Part shown: positions 2,795 through 34,053 of the stretch, piece after piece | Numbering within the stretch: position 1 is the stretch's first letter | Layout: each line of letters opens with the position of its first letter | Origin: a virus | Length of the DNA stretch: 64,000 bases | IMG/VR virus record: IMGVR_UViG_3300029850_000008 | Direction: 5' to 3' (one strand) | Program-made: the position numbers and the translations under genes | Notes under the pieces: generated by a model | Seen by the model: the letters and a program-made list of their open reading frames with translations, nothing else | Told to the model about the DNA's origin: nothing | The model's database searches: none

Positions 2795-4173
2795 ATGAAG
2801 TTCATTGATTTTTTCGCAGGAATCGGAGGATTTCGCAGGGGAATGGAATTAGCAGGTCATGAATGCGTTGGTTTCTGTGAATTTGATAAATTTGCGGTGG
2901 CAAGTTATACATCAATGCATTTGCTGACTGATGAGCAAAGAAAATATTTGTCTAAAGTTCCAGAAAAACAGAGATTTAAAGAAATTCTAAAGGAGGAATA
3001 TCGCAATGGAGAATGGTTTGCAAATGACATTAGACGAGTGTATGCCGGAGACATTCCAAAAGCCGACTGCTGGTGCTTCGGATTCCCCTGTCAGGACATA
3101 TCCGTTGCAGGAAAGCAACTTGGGTTTCAAGGAAACCGTTCAAGCTTGTTTTTCAGAGTTATGTACCTTATCGGACAACTCAAAGAAGAAGATAAACCCA
3201 CTTACCTTTTCATTGAGAACGTTAAGAATCTGCTTAGTGTTAATGGAGGATGGGATTTCGCCAGATTGCTCATTGAAATGGATAGGGGGGGTACGATGCA
3301 GAATGGCAGGTGCTCAACTCCAAAGATTTCGGAGTGCCACAAAACAGGGAAAGGTGTTTCATTATCGGACATCTTAGAGGGAGAAGTTCTGCAAAAGTAT
3401 TTCCTGTCGAAAGAACAGACGGAGAAAATAGTATTTCAATGATTGGTCATAGAGATGGATACAGAAGAAATATGCAAGTGTTTTCACCGGACGGGATTAC
3501 TGAAACTCTTGATACTGGACAAGGTGGTGGACGTGGGGCATACGTTTCAATAAACATCTTGAACAAAGACTATAATCATGCCCATGAAGCGGTCTATGAT
3601 ACAGACGGAATTATAGGAACTTTAATGGCTCGAGATTATAAAGATCCTAAGAGAGTGTGCATACCGGTTCTTACGCCAGACAGAGCAGAAAAGCATCAGA
3701 ATGGCAGACGATTTAAAGATGATGGAGAACCAATGTTCACACTAACAGGTCAAGACAGACATGGTGTTGCTGTTGAACCTATTGGAATTATTGATCCACA
3801 AGGAAGAAAAACGAAAGTTGTTGTTCCAAAAGACATGGTTCCTACATTGCGTAGTCAGTCACATGGAAACGAGCCAAATGTGTGTTTCAATGTAGGAGAA
3901 GATAAGGATTCAAATTCTAAGGATGGAATTTTTGTCAAACTGTCTGCTGAACTAACAGTATATGCAGTCTGGTATGAAAAATATCAGTGTTACATAGCGA
4001 TCAGAAAATTAACCCCAAAAGAATGTTTTAGACTTCAAGGGTGGTCCGATGATTATTTTGAGAAAGCTCAGTTTGTTAATTCTGACAGCCAGTTATACAA
4101 GCAAGCAGGAAACGGCGTAACAGTGACAGTTATAGAAGCTATAGCAAGGAAAATGAACGTAGATCTAAATTGA
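2795..4173 (+). pseudogene. DNA (cytosine-5)-methyltransferase, reading frame broken at a G7 tract (3285-3291)
   Basis: Motifs FAGIGGF (I), GFPCQDIS (IV), ENVKNL (VI) in frame 2; after the G run GYDAEWQVLNSKDFGVPQNRERCFIIG (VIII) and GNGVTV (X) in frame 1; G8 would give one ORF. Confidence 0.85.
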
Positions 4174-5703: not shown

Positions 5704-6001
5704 ATCAGTGTTAGTGATTGATACACCAGAGAATTGCTATGATTGCCCGTTCGGAACTTCATACTGCGGCGAACTTGAATATGTTGGCTATTGTGAATTA
5801 GCTGATTGTTTAGATTATGATGTAATTCTGATGACAGAAGAACATTATGATTGCGAAAGCAAATCAAGGCCTGAATGGTGTCCGTTGAAGCCATTGCCGG
5901 AGAAAATGATAATTCCAAGAGGTGCGAGAAATACGGACGGATTAGAGTATGCATGTGGTTATAATACTTGTATCAATGAGATCACAAGAGAGGTGAAGTA
6001 G
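5696..6001 (+). CDS. Cys-rich hypothetical protein
   Basis: ORF with CYDCPF.. motifs. Confidence 0.5.
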   Translation: MSKSVLVIDTPENCYDCPFGTSYCGELEYVGYCELADCLDYDVILMTEEHYDCESKSRPEWCPLKPLPEKMIIPRGARNTDGLEYACGYNTCINEITREVK

Positions 6002-6433
6002 ATGGAGAGATTAACGCTTGAAGAAGTTATTAAATACATAAAAGAAGTGGTGCAGAAGAACAGAAAAAATAAAGAAAAGAATACTATTGTTATTCCTAAC
6101 AGCTTTATAAGTAGTGCTGATTGTGCTGAAAAATACGAACAAGTTGCAAAATGGCTGAAAGAACTGAAATCTTATAAAGAAGCAGAAGAACAGGGCTTGC
6201 TTGTGAGATTGCCGTGTAAAGTTGGAGATACAGTGTATGTTCCAACAAGAAATTTTATTTCGGAATTGAGAATCATAATGATATCAGTTGATATGCACGG
6301 CGCTTATTTCAGATGGATGCTGAACAGTGGAATCTATCCCAATTTGGACGGATTTTCAGGAAGCGAACTTAACAAAACAGTATTCCTAAACCGTGAAGAA
6401 GCTGAGAAGAAGTTGGAAGAGATGCGAAAATGA
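6002..6433 (+). CDS. Hypothetical protein (paralog of 8190-8615)
   Basis: Shared LLVRLPCKVGDTVY / ILVRLPRKVGGTVY and KTVFL(N/T)REEAEK.LE motifs. Confidence 0.55.
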   Translation: MERLTLEEVIKYIKEVVQKNRKNKEKNTIVIPNSFISSADCAEKYEQVAKWLKELKSYKEAEEQGLLVRLPCKVGDTVYVPTRNFISELRIIMISVDMHGAYFRWMLNSGIYPNLDGFSGSELNKTVFLNREEAEKKLEEMRK

Positions 6434-18666: not shown

Positions 18667-20421
18667 ATGAGTAATATATACCAGTTAAGAGAACTACTTA
18701 GAACACAGACAATTTATGATTTGCCGTTACGAGTTGCATACTATGCAAGAGTCAGCACAGATCATGATGAACAGAAAACATCAATCAAGAACCAGGATGA
18801 TTATTTTAAGGAATTGATAAAATCAAAGCCGAACTGGAAATTTATGGGAGGCTATATTGATGAGGGGATTTCTGGAATTGCCGTAAAAAATCGTGAAGAT
18901 TTTTTGAGGATGATTGATGATGCTAAGAATGGAAAGATTGATTTGATACTGACAAAAGAAATTTCCAGATTCGCTAGGAATACACTAGATAGCATCAAAT
19001 ACACCCGTGAACTTTTGGCATGTGGTGTATGTGTATGGTTTATGAATGATGGAATCAATACGATTGATGAAGACAGTGAGTTAAGATTGACTATTATGGC
19101 AGCTATGGCACAGGACGAAATCAGAAAGATGTCTTCCAGGATTAAATTCGGTCAGGCTCAGTCAATAAAAAATGGCGTAGTAATGGGAAATTCAAGATTG
19201 TATGGTTATGACAAAAAAGATGGAAAACTGACAATCAATGAAGCTGAAGCCGAAATGGTTCGATTCATTTTTGAAAGTTATGCATCTGGCAAATGGACAA
19301 CACCACAGATTGAACGATACCTATATGAAAAAGGGTACAGAAACTATAATGGAGGTAAAATCAACCGTGGAGTTATCAAAAATATCATAAAGAATCCAAA
19401 GTACAAAGGTTATTATGCTGGTGGAAAAGTAAAAGTTATTGATATGTTTACAAAAAAACAGATGTTTCTTCCAAAAGACCAATGGGTTTATTACAAGGAT
19501 GATGGATCAACGGTTCCGCAAATCATAGATGAAAAGACTTGGGAAGATGCAAATTATTATATGAAGAGCCGTGGTGACAATATAAGAAGTCACAGAACGG
19601 TGTTTAAGTATGGTAATGTGTTTACTGGAAAGGTAATTTGTGGGATAGATGGTGCTTCGTATTGGCTACGTGAACACAAGATACGTGGAAAAGAAAGTGA
19701 TCCAAGATGGGTCTGTAGTCATAAAATCAAAAATGGAGCAAATTCTTGTCTATCGGTTCCTGTCAGAGAAAGCGACTTGAAACAAATGGTTGCATCAGCA
19801 ATCAGTCAAGCAGCTGGAAACTCTAAAGATGTTATTGATTCATATATGAATTATTACTTAAAAGCCATTGATGATTCAAAAGAAAAAGAGGGAGAAATAG
19901 CAGTTTTAAGAAAAAATATTGAATCCACAAAATTGAAGATGGAGAAAATCCTGGATTACAATTTGAACGGATCAATATCTGATGATGAATTCTTAAAAAG
20001 AAACGCTGCGTATAAAAAAGAGATTGAAAACGCAGAAGAGAAAATTCTAAAATTGTCTAAAAAACCGGAAGAGCCGGATTCTATTGCAAGGAAAATCGAA
20101 CAGATAAGGGAATACTTGGCGAACACAGAAATTGTTTCTGCTGATGACATAACTAAACAAATTGTCGAAAAATTAATTGAAAAGATAATTATATTACCAG
20201 AAGAGGAAAATGGTATAAAAGTCATCAAGTCAGAAATATACCTTATAAATAAGGAACTGTATAAGTTTTGTAAGGATATGGGGACAAAAAATAGTTGTTC
20301 AGATAACGTAACTTTGATCATGTTCCCTAAACAACGCATGGAAATTACTAATGAAAATGCGCATTGTGTGAACCAGTATAAAAGATTTTCAATAGAATTT
20401 TCTCTCTTTGTAAGATTTTAA
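18667..20421 (+). CDS. Large serine recombinase (integrase)
   Basis: YARVSTDHDEQKTSIKNQ catalytic Ser region, resolvase + recombinase + zinc-ribbon + coiled-coil length (584 aa). Confidence 0.9.
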   Translation: MSNIYQLRELLRTQTIYDLPLRVAYYARVSTDHDEQKTSIKNQDDYFKELIKSKPNWKFMGGYIDEGISGIAVKNREDFLRMIDDAKNGKIDLILTKEISRFARNTLDSIKYTRELLACGVCVWFMNDGINTIDEDSELRLTIMAAMAQDEIRKMSSRIKFGQAQSIKNGVVMGNSRLYGYDKKDGKLTINEAEAEMVRFIFESYASGKWTTPQIERYLYEKGYRNYNGGKINRGVIKNIIKNPKYKGYYAGGKVKVIDMFTKKQMFLPKDQWVYYKDDGSTVPQIIDEKTWEDANYYMKSRGDNIRSHRTVFKYGNVFTGKVICGIDGASYWLREHKIRGKESDPRWVCSHKIKNGANSCLSVPVRESDLKQMVASAISQAAGNSKDVIDSYMNYYLKAIDDSKEKEGEIAVLRKNIESTKLKMEKILDYNLNGSISDDEFLKRNAAYKKEIENAEEKILKLSKKPEEPDSIARKIEQIREYLANTEIVSADDITKQIVEKLIEKIIILPEEENGIKVIKSEIYLINKELYKFCKDMGTKNSCSDNVTLIMFPKQRMEITNENAHCVNQYKRFSIEFSLFVRF

Positions 20422-20574: not shown

Positions 20575-20800
20575 AATACTAATTGGAAATTTTTTGATAC
20601 CCCCCCTGGGTCTGGTTTTCTACTGGAAATTCCATTTTCAATCTTCTCTAAATTCTCTTCTGAAATTCTAAGAATTTTTTTCAAAAATTTTTTCTCGCCA
20701 GACCATTCGGAATTTTTTTGATACCCCCCCTACCCTCTATTTTGGAGCCGAAATTTCGATTTTCAATTTCTCGAAAAACGCTTCAAAAATCCCAGGCAGA
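20575..20800. repeat. Two degenerate ~124-bp direct repeats each containing TTTTTTGATACCCCCCCT
   Basis: C7 tracts at 20600-20606 and 20724-20730; following ~60 nt align (GAAATT.C.ATTTTCAAT.T.CTC). Confidence 0.7.
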
Positions 20801-20959: not shown

Positions 20960-21000
20960 AAGTGTAAACACAAATAGAGGGGCGTTATTATCCCCTCTAT
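20960..21000 (-). terminator. Intrinsic terminator of the minus-strand operon
   Basis: Minus RNA AUAGAGGGG-loop-CCCCUCUAU followed by UUUGUGUUU. Confidence 0.7.
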
Positions 21001-21200
21001 TATTCATAAAAGCCCCATGCTTTGTATTGCTTTTTCAATACTTCCAAAGCAGAATTTTTACTGAGAAACTCAGCTCTAGCCGTTTCTCTTGTATATTTCT
21101 TGGCACTATACCAGGCGAAACCATTGATCACATACCAGGAATCCCCGTGATCATCGGTTTCCAGCTCAATACTATAAACCATCTTTTTCTTACGTGGCAT
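21000..21200 (-). CDS. Hypothetical protein (66 aa)
   Basis: AAGGAGG RBS upstream of ATG 21200. Confidence 0.6.
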   Translation of the reverse strand: MPRKKKMVYSIELETDDHGDSWYVINGFAWYSAKKYTRETARAEFLSKNSALEVLKKQYKAWGFYE

Positions 21201-21234
21201 GGCTTGACCTCCTTATTCTTTTTTTCTGGATATG

Positions 21235-21432
21235 CTAAAAAATCCCGGATATACCGCCGGGGCGGTGCCCTGTTATGGCCTTGGACATCGGCTACAGTGC
21301 TGGCTTTTTCGGCTCCCAGTCAACGCCGCTTTTGCCTCCCTTCGCGATCCGGGCATTAAAAGCGGATAAAGCCCGGAGAGAAACCCAGCGGCGGACTGAA
21401 CCGCCCACGGCTTAACCGTCACAGGGTAGGTT
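21235..21432 (-). ncRNA. GC-rich structured leader/ncRNA ending in an intrinsic terminator
   Basis: Strong GC excess relative to surroundings; multiple stems (CCCUGU/ACAGGG, GGCGG/CCGCC, CCGGGC/GCCCGG, CCGCUUUU/AAAAGCGG, GCUGG/CCAGC); 3' CCCGG-loop-CCGGG + AUUUUUU. Confidence 0.45.
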
Positions 21433-21495
21433 TTATAAGAGGCTCAAGCTATAACCTCCGATAAATGACAAAACGGCAATAAGAACGTAATACAT
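21433..21495 (-). CDS. 20-codon hydrophobic mini-ORF MYYVLIAVLSFIGGYSLSLL
   Basis: AAAGGAGGG RBS 6 nt before the ATG (21495-21493); stop (TAA) at 21435-21433. Confidence 0.35.
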   Translation of the reverse strand: MYYVLIAVLSFIGGYSLSLL

Positions 21496-21510
21496 ATGTT
21501 TCCCTCCTTT

Positions 21511-21771
21511 CTATGCTTGGCAGAAATCGCCCTGCCAGCCTGTTACTAGGATCATTTTCCCGTCATCCCGGCGGTAAACAACGCCGCAGCCGTCCGCCCA
21601 TGTGCTCCATACAAGCCAACCTGGACGGCCTACAGTTTCCTTTTTTCTGGAATCGTACCAGATAAAGGACGGCTTAATACCTTCTTTTTCTTGATCCAGA
21701 GCGTTCTGGATCGCTTGATCTTCCGTGATAATCTGGTTATGATCCTTAAAATGCAAGATATATTTTCTCAT
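21511..21771 (-). CDS. Hypothetical protein (86 aa)
   Basis: ORF with GGAGG RBS. Confidence 0.6.
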   Translation of the reverse strand: MRKYILHFKDHNQIITEDQAIQNALDQEKEGIKPSFIWYDSRKKETVGRPGWLVWSTWADGCGVVYRRDDGKMILVTGWQGDFCQA

Positions 21772-21801
21772 GTGTTTTCCTCCATTTTTTTTGATTTTTA
21801 T

Positions 21802-21846
21802 AAAAACGCCGCCCGTGGGAATCGAACCAACGAAACTCCAAACGGC
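21802..21846 (-). terminator. Long hairpin + U-run with tRNA T-arm-like core (GGUUCGAUUCC)
   Basis: Minus RNA GCCGUUUG...CGGGCGGC then GUUUUU, directly after the stop of 21847-21996. Confidence 0.5.
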
Positions 21847-21996
21847 TTAATATTCGATGAATACAAACTCTTCATCGGTTTCCAGTTCTGCAACCCGGTT
21901 TCCAAGTGTGATAAGCATAAAACCGGCCTTTCTGTAATCCTTGATAAGGCTTTCAAAATGCTCCTTACTTGCTGCGGTGATTTTATATTTTCTCAT
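21847..21996 (-). CDS. Hypothetical protein (49 aa)
   Basis: Internal ATG 21996 preceded by GAGAAAGGAAC; longer ORF-track version would overlap the ribozyme and previous gene. Confidence 0.55.
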   Translation of the reverse strand: MRKYKITAASKEHFESLIKDYRKAGFMLITLGNRVAELETDEEFVFIEY

Positions 21997-22014
21997 ATTG
22001 TTCCTTTCTCGCCT

Positions 22015-22070
22015 GTCATCATCAGCGCAACGGGGCGGATCGTTGCGGACGCCCTGGAGGGCGTTTCGAC
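22015..22070 (-). ncRNA. Type II hammerhead ribozyme motif (HH-A)
   Basis: GUC-GAA-[ACGCCC UCCA GGGCGU]-C/[CGCAACG AUCCGCCC CGUUGCG]-CUGAUGA-U-GAC; all core nucleotides present. Confidence 0.75.
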
Positions 22071-22330
22071 TATTTAAGCAGCTTTTCAAATGCTTTTCTC
22101 TTTTTGTAATTTTCAACTTGACTTATACTGGAGTCATCAAAAAGGATCTGGAAACCATCAGAAGCAAGTGCTGCGGCCATTGTGTACGGGTCAATCTTTG
22201 GGAACCTGCAAAGGTATTCGACCACGTTCATTCTTATGTTTTTATCATTTTTCGTTCCGATCTTTTCAAGGTCTCTTTTGTAAACATTAAAAATTCTTTC
22301 CTGTTTCTCTTTCACGGTTTCTTTTATCAT
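22070..22330 (-). CDS. Hypothetical protein (86 aa)
   Basis: ORF flanked by the two hammerhead motifs; stop UAG overlaps HH-A 5' end. Confidence 0.6.
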   Translation of the reverse strand: MIKETVKEKQERIFNVYKRDLEKIGTKNDKNIRMNVVEYLCRFPKIDPYTMAAALASDGFQILFDDSSISQVENYKKRKAFEKLLK

Positions 22331-22357
22331 ATATTTTACGTCCTTTCTTTTTGCCCT

Positions 22358-22412
22358 GTCTCATCGGTGCAGGTGGGGCAGTTCCTACAGACCGCCGGGC
22401 GGCGGTTTCGAC
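22358..22412 (-). ncRNA. Type II hammerhead-like motif (HH-B), core variant CCGAUGA
   Basis: GUC-GAA-[ACCGCC GCCC GGCGGU]-C/[UGUAGG AACUGCCCCA CCUGCA]-CCGAUGA-GAC; same architecture as HH-A with compensatory stem changes. Confidence 0.55.
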
Positions 22413-22415
22413 TAA

Positions 22416-22643
22416 TTAGCATTCTCGGTGTATGCAACCAGTGTAAACAGTGTTTGTGGTTCCCTCGCAGCCGTTCAACCACTTTTTGCAGTGGTAGCAG
22501 ATGCTATTGTAACGGTTGTATTCTGTAGCTTTTCCATATTCCTCGCACTCTTTGCGATATGGACAAGTGGTGCAGTCCTTTTTGTATTTATGGCAATTTC
22601 TTTTTAGCAGTTTTTCCAGCTCTAAAAATCTTTCTTTTGTCAT
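22416..22643 (-). CDS. Cys-rich hypothetical protein (75 aa)
   Basis: ORF with GGAG RBS, many CxxC pairs. Confidence 0.6.
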   Translation of the reverse strand: MTKERFLELEKLLKRNCHKYKKDCTTCPYRKECEEYGKATEYNRYNSICYHCKKWLNGCEGTTNTVYTGCIHREC

Positions 22644-22675
22644 GTTTTCTATCTCCTTTTAGGTTTTCATCTCTT

Positions 22676-22800
22676 TGTTATGTACACAATTATATAATGT
22701 TACGTACACAATATCAATGTGCATTTTACACAAAGTTACGCACACATTTTTATATATTTTTGATGTGTACACAACATTGAAACTATGTTATAATTTCCGC
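22676..22800. promoter_or_regulatory. Divergent promoter region with five GTACACAA-like operator repeats
   Basis: TGTACACAA, CGTACACAA, TTTACACAA, GCACACAT, TGTACACAA; TGTTATAAT extended -10 for the + gene; TTGATA-17-TATAAT on the minus strand. Confidence 0.55.
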
Positions 22801-22823
22801 ATAATGGAAGGGGGGGCCTTTTT

Positions 22824-23006
22824 ATGGCGATGTCAGAAGAACGAAAAAATTATCTGTATTCTTACAAAAAACAAAGGCTAAAGCGTGTCCCGCTGGATAT
22901 GCAAATAGCGGACTATGAAGCGCTAAAAGCAGCAGCAGATCAAGCCGGGCAAACTGTCAACGGCTTTATTAAACAAGCCATAGCCGAAAAACTGGAGCGG
23001 ATGTAG
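22824..23006 (+). CDS. Ribbon-helix-helix (CopG/Arc-like) regulator
   Basis: ..KRVPLDMQIADYEALKAAADQAGQTVNGFIKQAIAEKLE RHH-type pattern. Confidence 0.55.
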   Translation: MAMSEERKNYLYSYKKQRLKRVPLDMQIADYEALKAAADQAGQTVNGFIKQAIAEKLERM

Positions 23007-33646: not shown

Positions 33647-33718
33647 TGGGCTATCGCCAAGCGGTAAGGCACATGACTTTGACTCATGTATGCGTTGGTT
33701 CGAATCCAACTAGCCCAG
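33647..33718 (+). tRNA. tRNA-Gln (anticodon UUG)
   Basis: Manual cloverleaf: acceptor UGGGCUA/UAGCCCA (U1-A72), D GCC/GGC, anticodon stem CAUGA/UCAUG loop CUUUGAC, T GUUGG-UUCGAAU-CCAAC; no encoded CCA. Confidence 0.85.
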
Positions 33719-33980
33719 CTTGGTAAGATTTATTTACCTTACCAAAATAGCATATCATTTATGCTATTCCTCCTCATTCATATTACCACCTAGCGGAAAG
33801 CTGATAAAAGAACCGTCACAAGGTTCGGGTGGTTTTCTGGTTTGGAAGCCAGGACATGTGCAAAGTTCCGAACTGTTTACCACATCATAGGGATGTTTGC
33901 ATGGCCTTTGTTATGGCTGGTGGATAAGAACCATAACAGTGAAGGGGATTTCTTGCAGAATTCAAATCCCCTTTATCTCA

Positions 33981-34053
33981 GGAGCTTTATTTCAGTTGGT
34001 AGAAAGACCGCCTCATAAGCGGTAAGTCATCGGTTCGAGTCCGGTAGGCTCCA
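33981..34053 (+). tRNA. tRNA with CAU anticodon (Met, or Ile2 if lysidine-modified)
   Basis: Manual cloverleaf: acceptor GGAGCUU/AGGCUCC, D UUUC/GAAA, anticodon stem ACCGC/GCGGU loop CUCAUAA, T AUCGG-UUCGAGU-CCGGU. Confidence 0.8.

Follow-up and report, generated by a model that had tools for sequence, protein, structure and literature searches.

Type II hammerhead ribozymes and tRNA-like minihelices between the small genes of a human-gut phage: candidate signals for mRNA punctuation

Clusters of hammerhead ribozymes that flank single genes or short gene blocks have been described in prophages, and such clusters cleave in vitro (Perreault 2011, PMC3088659). It was hypothesized that they process the transcript, and their purpose was still unresolved in a 2019 review (PMC3088659; PMC6765202). 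In plant mitochondria, tRNA-like structures known as t-elements carry RNase Z and RNase P signals for the formation of mRNA ends (Forner et al. 2007, PMC1920247). Here, a stretch of 64,000 nucleotides of viral DNA (IMG/VR record IMGVR_UViG_3300029850_000008; the whole stretch is hereafter called the window) was analyzed. Between positions 20960 and 22830 its minus strand contains six small open reading frames (ORFs), in reading order g1, g2, g3, g4, a 20-aa peptide and g5, whose spacers hold two hammerheads, HH-B and HH-A, and a hairpin resembling the acceptor and T arms of a tRNA, hereafter the minihelix. An earlier note on this DNA had pointed to the prophage clusters, correctly (Perreault 2011, PMC3088659), and had taken the combination to be uncharacterized. 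This holds for the pairing with minihelices and for the cassette behavior, of which no description was found in Rfam 15 or in the literature searched, but not for the hammerhead arrangement, which is of a known kind.

Both ribozymes are members of that kind. They share with the prophage clusters the type II topology, the pseudoknot between loop I and the 3' tail and a 3-bp stem II, the location in spacers between short phage genes of varying identity, and the proposed role of turning a polycistronic RNA into single-gene mRNAs (Perreault 2011, PMC3088659; RF02276). They differ by a U4C change in HH-B, the majority form in its lineage, and a 1-nt insertion after A9 in HH-A, by alternation with and replacement by minihelices, by the exchange of cassettes at the ribozymes, and by a link to an anti-CRISPR in one relative. 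The minihelix partner and the interchange of the two elements are what is new relative to the known clusters. The minihelices, in turn, share with plant t-elements and with mitochondrial tRNA punctuation a non-cloverleaf structure, a well-conserved T (pseudouridine) arm and a putative place at mRNA borders in polycistronic transcripts. Unlike t-elements they belong to a bacteriophage, consist of an acceptor/T-arm minihelix with a linker of 8–18 nt, and stand right after stop codons and alongside self-cleaving ribozymes.

Two further comparisons concern the array as a whole and its hairpins. Like acr-aca operons, the array has a strong promoter, operator repeats, an adjacent gene for a small DNA-binding regulator and a string of very small, fast-evolving, unannotated genes, and the array of a relative includes AcrIC5. 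Unlike them, no gene of the window matches a known Acr, and the regulator is a ribbon-helix-helix (RHH) protein, divergently transcribed. In the literature searched, acr operons were nowhere described as containing RNA elements for punctuation. As for intrinsic terminators, the hairpin after g5 is a classic example and the minihelix of the window also has a U5 tail; the minihelix family differs from terminators in that tRNA-specific features are kept and many copies are devoid of a U-run.

Hammerhead ribozymes and tRNA-like minihelices

HH-B (22350..22413) and HH-A (22007..22071), both on the minus strand, lie in successive spacers, as the earlier note had proposed, and both matched the type II model RF02276, HH-A with 40.2 bits, above the gathering score of 37 bits, and HH-B with 31.0 bits. 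A pattern describing their shared layout had exactly these two sites in the 64 kb, against 0.11 expected. When the whole 64 kb was run against Rfam at gathering thresholds, the speed filters left HH-A out, and laxer filters recovered it; other windows scanned at gathering thresholds with speed filters may therefore contain hidden hammerheads. In both copies stem I is closed, as is stem III, and stem II is open. Stem II consists of 3 bp (GAC/GUC), its 5' strand abutting or including the stop codon of the upstream gene, and in HH-A this stem takes in the UAG stop codon of g2. Stem III forms a hairpin of 6 bp with GUC at its end, stem I a hairpin of 6–7 bp, and loop I pairs with the tail after stem II in a pseudoknot (CGCC/GGCG in HH-A, UGCCC/GGGCA in HH-B), the feature that distinguishes the published type II consensus (Perreault et al. 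2011, PMC3088659). The predicted cleavage sites are after C22390 in HH-B (22390|22389) and after C22048 in HH-A (22048|22047).

Covariation was assessed in a set of 20 type II hammerheads of the same geometry from viral contigs, including both copies of the window. Of the alignment cells, 97.6% were paired, and 16 of 19 pairs had changed on both sides. Stem III (3 covarying pairs) and stem I (6 covarying pairs) were 100% paired, values that are partly built in since the scanner demanded the stems. The pseudoknot, which the scanner did not demand, was 92% paired and all five of its pairs covaried. When the 72-nt feature of HH-A was compared with 96%-identical relatives, it differed at seven positions, which occupy eight columns of the alignment; six fell in the stem III loop, in loop I or at the bulged nucleotide, and the seventh was a 1-nt insertion just 3' of the ribozyme. 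Folding energy singled out neither hammerhead (z = -0.3 and -1.0). Sequence, structure and covariation together identify HH-A and HH-B as hammerheads. More than 120 IMG/VR contigs match a narrow hammerhead pattern, and some of them carry 3–6 hammerheads in tandem.

In HH-A the CUGAUGA and GAAA core segments and the GUC cleavage triplet were all found, and the core is canonical apart from one extra U between A9 and stem II (22018), where relatives have U or G. An extra U, G or C at this place marks a lineage present in the window and in related loci (L019, L021, L024, L026, L037, L051 and L060), which includes HH-A and a third group of hammerheads, with Rfam scores of 50–67 bits. This third group lies upstream of g1 homologues in relatives, at the place that the promoter occupies in the window. 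In HH-B the segment expected to read CUGAUGA is CCGAUGA (22361-22367), the U4C form. Among 43 unique variants of the HH-B lineage C4 was present in 27 and U4 in 16, and U4C occurred on several stem III backgrounds, in related loci including L012, L016, L024 and L060. HH-B orthologues with the canonical core reach only 36.0–36.1 bits, which means that the low score of HH-B does not come from U4C alone. U4C is a known natural variant with considerably lower activity in vitro that still supports viroid infectivity (PMC3088659), so HH-B may be a slow or conditional cleaver. The variant counts suggest that these phages tolerate U4C or prefer it.

The spacer after g3 had been described as holding a long hairpin terminator with a tRNA T-arm-like core. 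The hairpin is there (21807..21846, minus strand), beginning right after the stop codon of g3. Several homologous copies have no U-run, and rather than as a terminator the element is more plausibly interpreted as one of the tRNA-like minihelices, a family that recurs on the sense strand. Its acceptor-like stem GCCGUU/GGCGGC is joined by the 8-nt linker UGGAGUUU to the T arm CGUUGG-UUCGAUU-CCCACG; a discriminator G comes next, then U5. The T loop UUCGAUU fits UUCRANN and the two stems stack as 6 + 6 bp with one mismatch, U·C at 21829 in the T stem, which is a G-C pair in L246, L247 and L249. In a real tRNA the stacked T and acceptor stems also amount to 12 bp (7 + 5). The element is not a cloverleaf, the 8-nt linker taking the place of the D and anticodon arms, and neither ARAGORN nor Rfam called it a tRNA; the only two tRNAs called in the window are at 33.6–34.1 kb (Gln-UUG and Met-CAU, 33647-33719 and 33981-34053).

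To collect similar elements a descriptor was used that demands a T stem, a UUCRANN T loop with a closing G-C pair, an acceptor stem that stacks immediately on the T stem, and 3–21 nt of linker. In its relaxed form its sole match in the window was the minihelix, against 0.23 expected. In 1.2 Mb of hammerhead-selected loci it had 31 matches, against 0–4 in shuffles. After class 1-selected loci had been added (232 sequences, ~2.2 Mb), 216 matches were obtained, or 198 (119 unique) after subtraction of 18 in ARAGORN tRNA genes, counts that are biased from L131 onward because many of these loci were fetched for class 1, and that come from closely related phages. A covariance model, R1, was built from 10 elements of equal length, nine of them class 1, and missed class 2 elements; since R1 is too class-specific, the descriptor and its shuffle controls were relied on. 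The linker motif UGG.GUUU of the window minihelix aligns with R1. An alignment of the minihelices by MAFFT placed acceptor 5' strands in different columns and was unusable for a model.

The elements in related loci are alike in design and placement and differ in their stem sequences. In the recurrent classes the T and acceptor stems total 12–13 bp (a few parses are longer) and the loop is UUCGAUU. Class 1, AGCAAG-linker-CCGGGG UUCGAUU CCCCGG-CUUGCU, occurs exactly in more than 120 IMG/VR contigs of ~50–60 kb. Minihelices were co-oriented with the flanking genes in 118 cases and opposed in 9, an orientation that the descriptor does not require. Of 183 elements, 81 begin no more than 5 nt from a stop codon on the same strand, and the following start codon is a median of 46 nt downstream. 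GG occurs in the linkers of 34 of 47 classes (26.2 ± 2.5 in shuffles), and UGG is enriched as well; in our reading the GG is reminiscent of G18-G19 of the D loop, which docks on the T loop. Within classes, compensatory changes turn ACAGGG/CCCUGU into ACAAGG/CCUUGU or ACAUGG/CCAUGU, and CCGGGG/CCCCGG into UCCCGG/CCGGGA or ACCGGG/CCCGGU. Orientation, placement at stop codons, linker GG and compensatory changes support a role at the RNA level in which a tRNA would be mimicked. Rfam 15 has no family for the minihelices scanned, giving only local matches to the T arm of transfer-messenger RNA (tmRNA) of 7–15 bits, and the published literature searched gave no description of such elements.

Several copies are devoid of a U-run, such as those preceding g4 homologues in L019 and L026, which read CUUGCC-AUUACUC; class 2 and class 5 minihelices also have none and lie just downstream of a separate terminator hairpin. 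Termination is thus not a conserved property of the minihelices. Elements of another class, AGCGGU...ACAGGG UUCGAUU CCCUGU GCCGCU (L019 9957-10004, L051 1962-2009, L067 2978-3025 and others), adjoin arrays of phage tRNA genes, not small-gene arrays, and are not called as tRNAs by ARAGORN. A few class 1-like elements have lost the T-loop consensus (GCAAUUU, GUCAAUU) or the acceptor 3' strand (L035 1176-1225, L105 4074-4123, L067 9799-9842) and look like decaying copies.

Interchange of elements and turnover of cassettes

Among the fetched loci, tblastn found homologues of g1 in 14, of g2 in 10, of g3 in one and of g4 in 25, with 34–69% identity, and the elements adjoining them were compared slot by slot. 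After g2 the window has HH-A, and a minihelix is found at this place in L021 and L024 (in L024 by the covariance model), which are both of the hammerhead-selected loci having g2. A minihelix also follows g2 in eight class 1-selected loci, an association partly built in by the fetching. After g3 the window has the minihelix and L196 a hammerhead. Before g4 there is a minihelix in the window, L019, L026 and L060, and in L254, which is devoid of g3 and of the minihelix, HH-A runs directly into g4. The deletion junction in L254 (2839-2851) consists of 13 nt, ATGAGAAAATATA, common to the starts of g3 (21984-21996) and g4 (21759-21771). This shared repeat at the junction suggests short-homology recombination as a route by which cassettes are lost or gained.

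A replacement of a single gene is seen in L246 and L247, in which g1 and HH-B are kept (94% identical), as is everything from HH-A onward (96%), and an unrelated 143-aa ORF stands in place of g2, exactly between HH-B and HH-A. Homology breaks at the start codon of g2 and at the first nucleotides of HH-A. These comparisons establish, at the level of sequence, the existence of the minihelices, their sense orientation, their positional interchange with hammerheads and the exchange of cassettes at element borders. The presence of either element at the same slots in related phages suggests that both might cut a long message into single-gene mRNAs.

The operon, its proteins and its surroundings

The window is a contig of viral type from metagenomes of the human gut, and at least 24 contigs, up to 71 kb long, carry the same operon (99.9–100% identical). 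Sequence features point to a repressor-controlled accessory operon of a phage of ~55–70 kb, possibly one with anti-defence functions. All five ORFs listed by the earlier note were found where it had placed them, each with a Shine-Dalgarno sequence 5–13 nt before its start codon, and its operator-rich promoter near 22.7 kb was likewise borne out (22676..22779, minus strand). A sigma-70-like promoter, TTGATA-17-TATAAT, matched at 11 of 12 positions, lies at 22717-22689, together with four operator copies of the type TGTGTAC(R)TAAC (22688-22676, 22710-22696, 22747-22731 and, inverted, 22764-22778). Divergent from the operon, on the plus strand, a gene of 60 aa (22824..23006) encodes an Arc/CopG-like RHH protein (PHROG 13890, E = 5.5e-11; weak matches also to an Arc-like repressor PHROG and to Pfam RHH). 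A promoter-like site for this gene (22766-22794) is overlapped by the inverted operator copy, and its product is a candidate repressor of the operon. At the other end, the predicted final terminator was found (20964..21001, minus strand) as a 10-bp hairpin overlapping the stop codon of g5 and followed by a U-rich tail, that is, a stable GC-rich hairpin with an adjacent U-run (-15.7 kcal/mol, z = -4.04; none of 200 shuffles was as stable).

The operon had been described as one of five genes with a different RNA element in each spacer. It has six ORFs, since the mini-ORF between g4 and g5 (21433..21495, minus strand; MYYVLIAVLSFIGGYSLSLL), a 20-aa hydrophobic peptide with a strong Shine-Dalgarno sequence AAAGGAGGG, belongs to a recurrent family. 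The arrays of L250 (3596-3673), L060 and L022 encode similar peptides of 20–30 aa that share a (V/I)G(G)YG(L) core, often as the last gene before a terminator, and both substitutions in the mini-ORF of relatives are synonymous, in third position; it is probably a real gene. The claim about the spacers was overstated, because the GC-rich spacer downstream of the mini-ORF (21237..21432, minus strand; ~196 nt, GC content 56–61%), presented as a structured RNA followed by a terminator, is unsupported as an RNA element. Its minimum free energy is no better than that of shuffles (z = -0.83), it has no Rfam 15 match at E <= 10, and no homologue was found outside near-identical relatives in annotated phage records and fetched loci. 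The terminator-like hairpin with U6 in which it ends (21261-21238) folds weakly (z = +0.66). Relatives differ by 3 changes in 196 nt, the same divergence (1.5%) as in the neighboring g5. A second T-arm-like hairpin in this spacer (GGCGG-UUCAGU-CCGCC) was rejected, its 6-nt loop failing the relaxed descriptor.

None of the proteins g1 to g5 had been recognizable to the earlier note, and searches of Pfam, PHROG, the Protein Data Bank (PDB) and structures bear this out, with no Pfam or PHROG match for any of the five. The Cys-rich g1 (75 aa; 22416..22643, minus strand, as are all five genes) has tblastn homologues of 34–69% identity in 14 related loci, in six of which a hammerhead is called within ~60 nt of the end of the aligned part. 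The sequence comparisons indicate that g1 is a real protein family; it has no sequence match in PDB. The gene between both hammerheads, g2 (86 aa; 22070..22330), has 11 homologue clusters with 59–100% identity, and g3 (49 aa; 21847..21996) has one homologue, of 62% identity, in L196. For g4 (86 aa; 21511..21771) 102 homologue clusters with 48–93% identity were found; it is a widespread protein of phages and mobile elements, always unannotated, and its relatives show 21 changes in nucleotides and 6 in amino acids, which indicates purifying selection. The one match of g4 among PDB sequences, to a designer PPR protein, was short and partial (24 residues, with no stretch passing alone). For g5 (66 aa; 21000..21200; Shine-Dalgarno AAGGAGG), a word-indexed search returned only its own cluster and an exhaustive HMMER search seven small relatives (34–42%, E = 1e-5 to 5e-4). 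A match of g5 to P0115, a repeat protein of 2680 aa with Ig-like, BNR and other repeats in Pfam, looks compositional and was discarded.

The structure prediction that the earlier note had asked for gave confident AlphaFold models for g4 (pLDDT 96) and g2 (pLDDT 91.5), and no informative fold match. The best PDB hit of the g4 model was an SH3/Sm-like barrel at E = 0.078, which is not informative, and that of the g2 model had E = 3.2, which is no fold match. A viral structure library gave only uncharacterized siphovirus proteins. Two genomic contexts of g4 homologues hint, through guilt by association, at anti-defence islands. In L250–L253 a homologue with 71% identity (3001-3264) lies directly upstream of an AcrIC5 homologue (3374-3580), which scores 39.4 bits with PF22147 (cutoff 27); a hammerhead (1804-1854) and a class 1 minihelix (~2498-2545) belong to the same array. 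The possibility that g5 is itself a relative of AcrIC5 was discarded, there being no similarity. The second context is that of another g4 homologue, P0065 (L242–L245, ~6001-6261), whose neighbors, on contigs as long as 2 Mb, are genes for RadC, Uma2, DUF6551, DUF5688 and the reverse transcriptase of a group II intron; the region resembles a portion of an integrated conjugative element and not a phage.

Scans of species-genome contigs with g2 and with P0065 as queries gave no relatives. Annotated phage records had no match to the operon and, with a relative's array as the query, only two matches, unannotated and of hammerhead size. In the window, a serine integrase gene (18667-20421) is convergent with the operon, and genes for Bro-N, KilAC (phage antirepressor) and a DnaB-like helicase are found in the neighborhood. 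The gap of ~540 bp between integrase and operon contains a direct repeat, GGAA(A/T)TTTTTTGATACCCCCCCT, at 20585-20607 and 20709-20731, and a 62-nt stretch (~20580-20640) common to other phage loci; these may be attP or recombinase-binding sites.

Proposed punctuation of the transcript and other explanations

Taken together, the observations make it probable, in our estimation, that the array is subject to mRNA punctuation, in which hammerheads and signals of the RNase P/Z type would cut a repressible transcript into single-gene mRNAs. One promoter at ~22.69 kb on the minus strand, overlapped by the four operators, would transcribe all six ORFs. Self-cleavage of HH-B after C22390 and of HH-A after C22048 would produce mRNAs of ~290 nt for g1 and ~342 nt for g2. 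The stem III hairpin, bearing a 2',3'-cyclic phosphate, would form the 3' end of each upstream product, and each downstream product would begin with a 5'-OH and the stem I hairpin, ~45 nt before the next Shine-Dalgarno sequence. The release of g2 as a discrete RNA and the cyclic-phosphate hairpin end of g1, both foreseen in the earlier note, would result if both ribozymes cleave, the end of g1 following from the type II topology. Cleavage would decouple the stability and the translation of each cistron. After g3 the minihelix would most likely do the same job, in the manner of the t-elements of plant mitochondria (PMC1920247), as a substrate of host RNase Z on its 3' side, of RNase P on its 5' side, or of both; we favor 3' cleavage of the RNase Z type because g3 would then keep a protective structured end, as with the hammerheads. 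Hammerheads and minihelices, beginning at stop codons and using the same slots, would serve in this way across a large clade of gut phages in which the intervening genes are exchanged or deleted cassette by cassette. The cleavage events, the enzymes involved, the single transcript and the anti-defence function are inferred.

Several points weigh against this proposal. HH-B scores below the RF02276 gathering threshold (31.0 against 37 bits) and carries U4C, reported to reduce activity in vitro strongly (PMC3088659). The minihelix of the window has a mismatch in its T stem, has an unexceptional fold energy (z = -1.54) and, although the top match of model R1 in the window, scored only 14.8 bits (E = 0.14) with this model made mostly from class 1; the wider counts of minihelices come from a sample biased toward class 1 and from closely related phages. 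Because folding energy picks out neither the hammerheads nor the minihelix, the case rests on the comparative evidence. A cut by RNase P at the 5' side of the minihelix would strip the g3 mRNA of its protective 3' hairpin. As to the anti-defence part, none of g1 to g5 matches a known anti-defence protein in Pfam, in PHROG or in the comparison of g5 with AcrIC5. Finally, the U5 after the minihelix of the window makes transcription termination possible as well.

This last point raises the question of whether the hairpin is a plain intrinsic terminator or attenuator whose likeness to a tRNA is incidental or a relic of a tRNA gene. The G-UUUUU directly after the helix, for which a simple terminator scan lists the element, the UUUU after many class 1 copies and a folding energy unremarkable for a special structure all fit such an element. 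The copies at the homologous position in L019 and L026 and those of classes 2 and 5, the latter following a separate terminator, are nevertheless devoid of a U-run, g4, which lacks a separate promoter, depends on read-through, and a T-loop consensus, a 12-bp stack and a GG linker that recur across unrelated stems are features of which a terminator needs none; we regard this explanation as unlikely. A different view would place the function of both elements mainly at the DNA level, as recombination linkers for the shuffling of cassettes, RNA activity being secondary. It draws on the exchange and deletion junctions at elements or gene starts in L246, L247 and L254, and on the near-identity of class 1 across more than 120 contigs with differing flanking genes. 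It does not account for compensatory changes that preserve RNA pairing, including a pseudoknot that is meaningless in DNA, for the strong strand bias relative to genes, for the conserved catalytic core, or for the cleavage in vitro of the published prophage clusters (PMC3088659), and as the main function it appears improbable. A recombination role is compatible with punctuation, and the two roles are not mutually exclusive.

An excised minihelix might instead act in trans as a stable tRNA mimic, a decoy or inhibitor of a host tRNA-directed enzyme or defence comparable to RNA anti-CRISPRs. Phage small-RNA genes with anti-defence function exist (PMC10651486), and this would suit arrays that can hold an anti-CRISPR gene. 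It would suit equally a T loop like that of the tRNA elbow together with a GG-containing linker. The minihelix has no anticodon arm, however, the usual target of tRNA-directed defence nucleases, and its tie to stop codons and interchange with hammerheads fit a role in cis better, which leaves the trans role with very little probability. For the GC-rich spacer, a structured regulatory RNA (leader, attenuator or small RNA) controlling g5, with the mini-ORF as leader peptide, would agree with the order of mini-ORF, GC-rich stretch, hairpin plus U6 and Shine-Dalgarno sequence of g5, and with the few changes in relatives. The number of changes is no lower than expected from g5, folding does not exceed that of shuffles, there is neither an Rfam match nor a homologue outside near-identical relatives, and elsewhere the same type of peptide stands directly before a terminator with no gene downstream; there is little likelihood of such an RNA.

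For the phages as a group, punctuation can be put in wider terms, offered tentatively as a possibility somewhat short of probable: a large clade of gut phages would carry accessory, possibly anti-defence, arrays punctuated by interchangeable type II hammerheads and RNase P/Z-handled minihelices, as a counterpart of mitochondrial tRNA punctuation, with the modules doubling as joints for cassette exchange. What hammerheads do for phages and prophages has been an open question since 2011, and a 2019 review called their role undefined (PMC6765202). If the proposal is true, the interchange described here would be the first comparative argument for their purpose: since a hammerhead and a tRNA-like element share a slot by homologous genes, and tRNA-like elements are established endonucleolytic signals in organelles, the shared job would be the making of mRNA ends, for which concrete cleavage sites are offered. 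The locus would also bring to light an RNA motif common in human-gut phages and without a matching Rfam 15 model in the loci scanned, and a hammerhead core, U4C, that is prevalent in nature. Small-gene arrays with cassette turnover of this kind may be a source of new anti-defence proteins.

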